Shown: in pieces, positions 7,978 to 9,609 of the stretch
Layout of the letters: each line of letters begins with the position of its first letter
How positions within the stretch are numbered: the stretch's first letter is position 1
Origin: Anolis carolinensis
Lineage: Eukaryota
Length of the DNA stretch: 64,000 nucleotides
Assembly (NCBI RefSeq): GCF_035594765.1
Contig: NC_085842.1
Span: forward strand, 9,361,256 to 9,425,255
Direction: 5' to 3'
Position numbers and translations under genes: made by a program
The notes under the pieces: model-generated
Told to the model about the DNA's origin: nothing
The model's database searches: none
The model's input: the letters and a program-made list of their open reading frames with translations, nothing else

Positions 7978-8142
7978 AGAGAATGCTTCTGGAACATGGC
8001 CACACAGCCCGAAAGACATACAACAACCCTGTGATCCCGGCCATGAAAGCCTTCGACAACACATAGTCCCTATATATGTGGCACAAAAGAAGGTTCTGGT
8101 ATTCAGTACAATAAAACTTGTTGGAATCTACCCGCGTGTGTC

Positions 8143-9609
8143 TTGGTGCTTTCTTTGGAAGACAGACCCACAGCACAACTGGGAGAAGAGAACCTGACAA
8201 TTTGTACTGAATCACCTACTTTCTCTAGCTCCTACCTACAGCAACATGGAGGGAGGAGAGAGAGAGAACCAATTGGAATATTCCCGGGGAGAAGAAGCAA
8301 GCGCCGACGGAGAAACGAGGGAGGAACCCCTCAGCCTCTCGGAGGAAGCAAGCTCCGATGGAGGGGAGAGGGAAGAATCCCACACCCCCGTGGACGCAGC
8401 CACTTCCCCCCAACCGTGGCCACGCAATGGAGGGTCACGCCAGCGGGGCCGGAGAGGCCGCACAGAGCCGAGCCATCCACCGCCTGGGAGCTTGGCAACC
8501 CCCACCCGACGGAGAGTCAAGGAATGCAGGAGATGAGGCAAGAAATAGCACAACTGCGGGAGATGGTCCATTCCCTGATCCTGGCACAACAGGGCAGCCC
8601 CAGGGGGCAGAACGCCAGCTCCGTCCTCCCAGCGGCCGCTCCTTCCCCTCCGGTAACCTCCCCCGGCCTCTCCGCAGCAGCCCCTTCCCCCTACAGACAA
8701 AGGACTGGGGGAGAGGGGGGGCAGCGAGGCCGGCACTACAGAGAGGAGAGGAAGTTGCAAGTCACCTTTGATGGGGACCCAGAGAAACTGCCTTTCTTTT
8801 TGATGAGAGTGGCTACCTTCATGAGCAAGTGGGAAGGCTCTTTTGAAAGCGAAATGGACAAGGTCCAACATGTGGCCGACCACTTCGAAGGAGCAGCCTC
8901 TGAATGGCTCCTGGCGCTGTACGACATGAGGGCACCGGAGCTCAACAACTTGGATGCCTTCATGGGGGCACTGAGATCCCGCTTTGAAGACCGCCTGCGC
9001 AAGGAAAAAGCCAGGGCGAAACTCAGGAGCCTGAAGCAAGGCGCCCGCTCCGTTCAGGACTTTGCCTTGGAATTCAGAAGGCTGGCCTCATTGCTACCTG
9101 AGTGGAACGAAGCCTATAGGATTGAAGTGTTCAAGGAGGGCTTGAGGCCAGACCTGGTGGAATGGGTGCTGGCCAGGGAGAACCCGGGCACCCTGGACAG
9201 ATGGGTGGAAGCGGCTGGCGAGGGGGAGGTGCTGAAGGAGGAAATCAAAAACTTCCGCCAAAAGCAAACCCCCTCAGCCGGAAGCACTGCGGGCAGAAGC
9301 CGTGCCCCTTCGAAGAACAGGGACAGGCTTGATCCGGCTGAGAAGGATCGGAGGTGGAAGATAGGCCTGTGCCTACGGTGTGGAGGTGAGGGGCATTTGG
9401 CCACCTCCTGCCCAGGAGGCGGGAAGAAACCTGCAGGACGCAGGACAGGAGAAGGCCAGCCCAAGGCCAACCTCAACCCAGGGAAGAAGACCAGCGCAAC
9501 AGCACTGGCAGCAAAGCAGCAGAAACGGCCGGAGACCCCCTGCGATGGACCCCAAGATGCCTCCTCTGGCAGCGAACAGCTCTCGGGAAATGAGGTTTGC
9601 CTGGATTAA
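8143..9609 (+). CDS. gag: Retrotransposon Gag (PEG10/Sushi-like capsid plus CCHC knuckle); true start probably at a downstream ATG
   Basis: FDGDPEKL, LRSLKQGARSVQDFALEFRRLA, FKEGL, CLRCGGEGHLATSC. Confidence 0.9.
   Translation: MVLSLEDRPTAQLGEENLTICTESPTFSSSYLQQHGGRREREPIGIFPGRRSKRRRRNEGGTPQPLGGSKLRWRGEGRIPHPRGRSHFPPTVATQWRVTPAGPERPHRAEPSTAWELGNPHPTESQGMQEMRQEIAQLREMVHSLILAQQGSPRGQNASSVLPAAAPSPPVTSPGLSAAAPSPYRQRTGGEGGQRGRHYREERKLQVTFDGDPEKLPFFLMRVATFMSKWEGSFESEMDKVQHVADHFEGAASEWLLALYDMRAPELNNLDAFMGALRSRFEDRLRKEKARAKLRSLKQGARSVQDFALEFRRLASLLPEWNEAYRIEVFKEGLRPDLVEWVLARENPGTLDRWVEAAGEGEVLKEEIKNFRQKQTPSAGSTAGRSRAPSKNRDRLDPAEKDRRWKIGLCLRCGGEGHLATSCPGGGKKPAGRRTGEGQPKANLNPGKKTSATALAAKQQKRPETPCDGPQDASSGSEQLSGNEVCLD
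8202..8212 (+). promoter_or_regulatory. Self-priming primer-binding site (Tf1-type)
   Basis: ttgtactgaat, just after the LTR end, is the reverse complement of attcagtacaa at 8101-8111 in the LTR. No TGG tRNA-type PBS is present. Confidence 0.8.

Follow-up and report, generated by a model that had tools for sequence, protein, structure and literature searches.

The window analyzed here (the whole stretch of DNA under study, 64,000 nt from Anolis carolinensis) contains at positions 7702-13581 a Ty3/gypsy retrotransposon that carries a chromodomain and belongs to the Tf1/sushi branch of vertebrates (Table 1). Gag is followed by protease, reverse transcriptase (RT), RNase H and integrase, in an arrangement bounded by LTRs with TG...CA ends and by a short target-site duplication; Pfam domains were found for capsid, protease, RT, RNase H, integrase, SH3 and chromodomain, the last at the C-terminus of integrase (PF00385, E 4.5e-12). 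Among the best 120 of 1,229 UniRef matches the RT-RNase H segment is 97% identical to an Anolis carolinensis record, ~56-63% identical to most other squamate records, and mostly 46-49% identical to fish and amphibian records; the large anole clusters (107 and 160 members) reach just 56-57%. In a quick RT-RNase H tree of 47 rows, to which Sushi-ichi, Amn-ichi and Tf1 do not belong, the element falls in a squamate clade (SH-aLRT 100) nested in a vertebrate clade (SH-aLRT 96). Membership of the vertebrate Tf1/Sushi group, proposed in a sequence-only reading of the window, is thus borne out by the domains, the identities and the tree. The nearest solved structure to the element's RT is that of Ty3, and no relative turned up among viral contigs searched with a single protein.

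Table 1. Features of the element and its surroundings, in window coordinates.
Feature	Position	Strand	Remarks
Left target-site duplication	7697..7701	+	last base differs from right copy
5' LTR	7702..8199	+	240 nt plus insert; TG...CA; 7-nt terminal inverted repeats
Insert, presumably Penelope-like, 246 nt	7819..8064	.	12-nt target duplication 7807-7818 / 8065-8076
TATA box	8071..8078	+	TATATATG; intact downstream of insert
Predicted self-primer	8101..8111	+	first 11 nt of RNA if +1 = 8101
AATAAA	8110..8115	+	only such hexamer in 7702-8260; shares primer's last 2 nt
Candidate flanking duplex	8118..8200	+	8118-8124 with 8194-8200, 7 bp, 2 G-U
Candidate U5-leader duplex	8180..8234	+	8180-8192 with 8221-8234, 12 bp
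Primer-binding site (PBS)	8202..8212	+	2-nt spacer 8200-8201 after LTR; no TGG
gag	8246..9609	+	capsid domain ~8755-9250; CCHC knuckle ~9370-9411
Predicted -1 frameshift signal	9585..9647	+	in-phase G GGA AAT, then two crossing stems
Aspartyl protease ORF	9594..10604	+	frame change before RT within ~10190-10450
RT, RNase H, integrase zinc finger and core, one ORF	10154..12982	+	
Integrase C-terminal SH3 (Tf2-1-like) and chromodomain	12739..13341	+	
Polypurine tract region	13309..13341	+	purine run, T6, G7, 5 nt before 3' LTR; read from sequence
3' LTR	13342..13581	+	240 nt, uninterrupted
Right target-site duplication	13582..13586	+	identical to empty site
Empty paralogous site	40900..40904	+	inside duplicated segment

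The predicted frameshift signal, read from the sequence, has its G GGA AAT site at the end of gag, with stems of 10 bp and at least 7 bp. The protease-RT linker contains three 93-nt tandem repeats (10247-10525). Elsewhere in the window lie fragments of non-LTR RT (PF00078) at 15907-18762 (-) and 33271-34674 (-), which we take to be L2/CR1-like.

The 5' LTR is interrupted by a 246-nt insert with 104-nt perfect inverted arms, each of which contains a hammerhead-core motif (near 7937-7978), the motif being present on both strands. A near-identical second copy occurs at 58460-58589, and 25093-25285 is listed with the same repeat. The insert landed at the TATA box of the LTR and duplicated it, leaving the spacing from TATA to primer intact. 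We take it to be presumably Penelope-like. Anole Penelope elements bear hammerheads according to PMC11167929; three motifs of the insert had no match in the supplements of the Penelope paper, and Anolis is not named in PMC4209133. The only Rfam matches were to microRNAs, all sub-threshold, with 7 of 8 falling on the insert hairpin, and were rejected.

Age and state of the copy

Once the insert is set aside, the two LTRs are identical at 240 of 240 positions, which bounds their divergence at ≤1.2% (95%). The site is moreover empty in a paralogous segment, whose flanks differ by 34 substitutions in 1,806 aligned columns; the insertion is therefore likely to be younger than that duplication. The copy is thus young, as the sequence-only reading had held on the strength of matching LTRs, although the match depends on removing an insert that it did not mention. 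The segmental duplication itself (~5300-7700 plus 13582-15450 versus ~38560-42590) lies in a C2H2 zinc-finger/SCAN-like gene cluster. The target-site duplication is 5 nt long with one difference, on the left side, where the final two bases equal the two bases just before the 3' LTR; the odd last base may be a retained cDNA overhang instead of a later mutation.

The copy is also broken, by the insert in the 5' LTR, by a deletion in integrase (~45-70 codons absent near 12805, where the frame also changes) and by two frame changes; its coding breaks lie in gag, between protease and RT, and in integrase. In 5' gag the first ATG (8246) opens a different frame from that of the capsid ORF. Contigs from sequencing runs differ from the window inside 5' gag in 4 of 4 runs, so this break is either private to the copy or an assembly error. 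Small indels in the window, two of the element's breaks included, may be sequencing errors; the zinc-finger array at 1850-3900 likewise shifts frame between 3449 and 3615, as a pseudogene or through an assembly indel. Other near-identical copies exist, and near-identical gag contigs are present in all four runs at a depth above that of divergent gag contigs, a weak hint of several young copies.

The same contigs cover the LTR stretch 8088-8201 ~100x more deeply than gag (runs X1, X3, X15 and X18), although such depth does not measure copy number and is raised by solo LTRs. In 3 of 4 runs the loose contig ends after 8201 agree closely in re-entering U3-like sequence near 13414. A single X15 contig loops from 8205 back to 8088. 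These observations hint that a ~170-nt fragment of the LTR may be arranged head to tail in arrays, each unit ending 2 nt past the LTR; a literature search returned no title on such an array.

Predicted primer, binding site and RNA start

A PBS for the 3' end of a tRNA must start with TGG. The first TGG past the 5' LTR is at 8247, 47 nt downstream, and none occurs within 0-5 nt of the LTR; tRNA 3'-end priming is therefore excluded. No tRNA gene was found in the 64-kb window.

What occupies the PBS position instead is, as the sequence-only reading had noted, an exact 11-nt complement of the element's own LTR: 8101-8111 (ATTCAGTACAA) and 8202-8212 are perfect reverse complements. When the LTR was shuffled with dinucleotides preserved, a complement of at least 11 nt to a run beginning ≤6 nt from the LTR end arose in only 6 of 20,000 cases, and none of 846 control windows from the element interior reached 11 nt of pairing. 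Self-priming is recognized in PMC6317226 by a 5'-LTR complement of at least 10 nt to a region beginning 0-5 nt after the LTR, a description that covers the 11 nt after a 2-nt spacer found here. Chance can of course make 11-mers recur: that of the PBS is seen again at 7347-7357 and, in the paralog, at 40557-40567, in an AT-rich flank without an LTR, a recurrence that we read as probably coincidental. That the primer:PBS pairing is itself a coincidence, or a relic without function, is nevertheless extremely improbable in view of the shuffles and of the register, TATA spacing and start step that are shared by the related elements considered below.

The pairing also dominates the predicted fold of the RNA. 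The primer:PBS duplex was kept in all 20 combinations of start and end that were folded, with a probability of 0.5-1.0 per pair and of 0.98-1.0 for the inner pairs; for the fold of 8095-8260, z = -2.5. Two further candidate duplexes flank it (Table 1), the 7-bp one enclosing a long U5 hairpin, and neither the 7-bp nor the 12-bp duplex is better than in shuffled sequence (p 0.39 and 0.26, respectively). Within the family, contigs of the four runs show no variant at ≥5% in either primer or PBS that could reveal covariation, and a minor LTR variant in the primer, seen at loose contig ends, has no visible partner in the PBS. Eight bases upstream of and overlapping the primer (8095-8102) are complementary to the PBS of a related locus, L068, which could be due to chance or could be a trace of an older primer register.

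The predicted RNA start depends on the promoter. The uninterrupted LTR has a single match to TATAWAWR, TATATATG, which begins 30 nt before 8101, as had been stated; vertebrate promoters prefer a spacing from TATA to start of 30-31 nt. The description of 8101 as Inr-like stands only weakly, since the position offers a pyrimidine-purine step (T|A) and nothing more of an initiator, and the sole full BBCABW match in 8095-8111 is at 8105, with a C|A step, 34 nt after TATA. An RNA that starts at 8105, or at mixed positions, would still be self-primed, with a 7-nt primer and with the outer pairs of the duplex being incidental. The initiator match speaks for this variant, whereas the spacing preference disfavors it, and a 7-nt duplex would be about half as stable as the 11-nt one (-6.5 versus -12.3 kcal/mol). 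On balance, and with the related elements taken into account, we regard a start at 8105 as unlikely.

The AATAAA hexamer begins only 9 nt after the predicted start at 8101 and is followed by a GU-rich tract at ~8136-8158. If it is used, R would be ~30 nt long and the priming cut would fall inside the 5' copy of the signal. The contact between duplex and hexamer bears on another explanation, in which a cellular RNA, such as an internal tRNA fragment or a small RNA, primes the element while the duplex serves to mask the 5' poly(A) signal or to aid packaging. Half-tRNA priming is indeed known in copia lineages (PMC6317226), and the duplex does touch the hexamer. However, it covers just two of the six bases, leaving the other four unpaired with a probability of 0.83-0.98, and masking was rejected as its main role for that reason; a primer from outside would, moreover, be blocked by the duplex.

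Pairing in related elements

Related elements were collected by an alignment scan, whose 67 loci fall into a group of 6 with 34-41% identity and one of 61 with 24-29% (three of the latter used as outgroup only), and by a metagenome scan that covered 2 of 64 parts; together these yielded 86 gypsy-type loci. Eleven of the 86 were usable in that a repeat pair defined where their LTR ends, a set containing neither other squamate families nor a tRNA-primed control; L117 and L138 were left out as they have no CA end, and the remaining loci offered no such pair. The search for complements extended over at most the 700 nt that precede the end of the 3' LTR. Three of the loci (L068, L069 and L072) group with fish proteins in the quick tree.

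Ten of the 11 relatives have an exact complement of 8-11 nt to their own LTR after a 2-nt spacer, the exception being L137 with 5 nt, and TGG is found in the first 8 nt after the LTR in none of them. The mean of the best pairing length is 9.2 at offset 2 as against 4.2-5.0 at offsets 8-24. When LTR and PBS were taken from different loci only 6 of 132 pairs reached 8 nt, four of the six between close relatives. The PBS letters differ between families (L090 and L108 have the same PBS); thus it is the pairing itself that is conserved. Because the letters of the PBS shift freely between families in step with the LTR of each, a freedom incompatible with a fixed host primer, and since the relatives keep the duplex even though their AATAAA is 42-362 nt away or missing, priming by a host RNA is quite improbable, more so than a start at 8105. 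Of the two flanking duplexes, the downstream one is significant (p < 0.05) in 5 of 10 relatives, whereas none of the 10 has a significant upstream one.

The relatives are also informative about the start. The 5' end of the duplex falls on a pyrimidine|purine step in 8 of 10 of them (nominal p 4e-4, kinship ignored). A looser scan gave matches at 22 of the 86 loci, or 18 after removal of three already counted and of one artefact (L114); the step is present in 13 of these 18, whose spacer is 2 nt in 14 and 1 nt in 4, and in all 10 of those re-read (spacer 2, 1.7-2.4 kb from RT; L074 left out). The step was not a selection criterion, and it has the appearance expected of a transcription start. 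With respect to the choice between 8101 and 8105 the relatives point both ways: most of the distant ones begin the duplex at C|A, 31-34 nt after TATA, as 8105 would, whereas in two fish-type relatives a TATA-like motif precedes the duplex by exactly 30 nt, the spacing seen in the window, and the pairing in 10 of the 11 is longer than 7 nt.

Proposed mechanism and comparison with known systems

Self-priming is likely because 10 of the 11 relatives, together with an element from tuatara described below, keep 8-12 nt of pairing with their own LTR in the same register. Pairing, predicted fold, relatives and start context therefore all support the mechanism that had been suggested for this family. 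That it primes from its own RNA in some form, with the 11-nt segment or another, appears very probable. To the specific reading, that the predicted first 11 nt (8101-8111) fold onto 8202-8212 and prime without a tRNA, we assign a probability of roughly three in four. By analogy with Tf1, RNA polymerase II would start at 8101 ± 1, RNase H of the element would cleave the RNA behind base 11 (8111|8112) inside the particle, and the freed 3' end of the primer would be extended into minus-strand DNA from 8201 back through U5. An RNA end near 8130-8140, set by AATAAA, would leave ~20-30 nt of R for the first strand transfer.

If the hexamer is indeed the signal used, self-priming in the squamate family may be compressed, with bases common to primer and poly(A) signal and with the cut placed within the 5' AAUAAA. 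R would then measure only ~30 nt, and ~20 nt of homology would have to suffice for strand transfer. We advance this arrangement tentatively and consider it doubtful rather than probable. Were it true, priming, 3'-end choice and strand transfer would be coupled in one 35-nt module that sets the family apart from the 11 relatives and the tuatara element examined.

In this young lizard family, with its 240-nt LTR and 100-nt leader, the 11-nt reading leads to precise expectations: a cap at 8101, a cut at 8111|8112 and poly(A) at ~8130-8140. They could be tested in what are the nearest active relatives of PEG10, RTL1 and other sushi-derived genes of mammals. A positive outcome would confirm an expected mechanism, and fish elements would be equally suitable. 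Self-priming in the group has reportedly been predicted since 1997-2001; earlier publications on the subject include those of Levin (1995-96), of Lin and Levin (1997) and of Butler et al. (2001), and the Amn-ichi of Piskurek et al. 2009 is said to be an anole element. In the literature searched, mostly without subscription papers, we found neither an experimental test of self-priming in a vertebrate nor a published description of this lizard family, which subscription papers may already cover. The "self-priming" of PMC4340606 is a cDNA artefact, not the retrotransposon mechanism, and was set aside.

In the works cited, self-priming is experimentally shown for fission-yeast Tf1 and elsewhere inferred: PMC6317226 describes it as common to the members of the Tf1/sushi group, yeast and vertebrate alike, and PMC4600332 implicates it from fungi to vertebrates. 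The V-clade includes Amn-ichi (PMC2774666), and full-length chromoviruses have been reported in reptiles (PMC3670739; see also PMC3601003 and PMC3899998).

In Tf1 the PBS is paired with the first 11 bases, which RNase H separates from base 12 (PMC7175516). Judged by published descriptions, the element resembles Tf1/Tf2 of Schizosaccharomyces pombe in its 11-nt 5' segment complementary to an LTR-adjacent PBS, in having no tRNA site, and in its chromodomain integrase. It differs in that Tf1 has one ORF and no CCHC knuckle, whereas the element has a CCHC and a predicted -1 frameshift, in agreement with non-yeast members of the Tf1/sushi group, whose Gag has a CCHC and whose gag and pol are joined by a programmed -1 frameshift. 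The two flanking duplexes ("pretzel") that Tf1 requires around its primer:PBS helix, according to bioRxiv 2022.12.06.519325, are only weakly matched.

The vertebrate sushi-type elements are matched in the domain set, the predicted -1 frameshift, the Sushi-profile-like LTR ends and the self-complementary PBS of the element, its RT grouping with fish, amphibian and squamate proteins. Its LTR is short by comparison (240 nt), and its AATAAA lies 9 nt after the predicted start, in contrast to 252-362 nt at three fish-type loci. The Anolis chromoviruses in print (Amn-ichi, and AAWZ01021304 in PMC3670739) are likely to share both host and lineage with the element; yet the printed Gag and Pol of the "Anolis Chromovirus" AAWZ01021304 differ from its own when compared by eye. 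The Sphenodon (tuatara) chromovirus-1, AC154075 (PMC3670739, supplementary file 3; also compared by eye), has a 12-nt complement to its own LTR after a 2-nt spacer, a TATA-like motif ~27 nt upstream and a C|G start step, whereas its letters are different, its LTR is given as 897 bp and no AATAAA was seen beside the primer. Self-priming is thus a mechanism already expected for the group, to which the element adds another member, in a broken copy.
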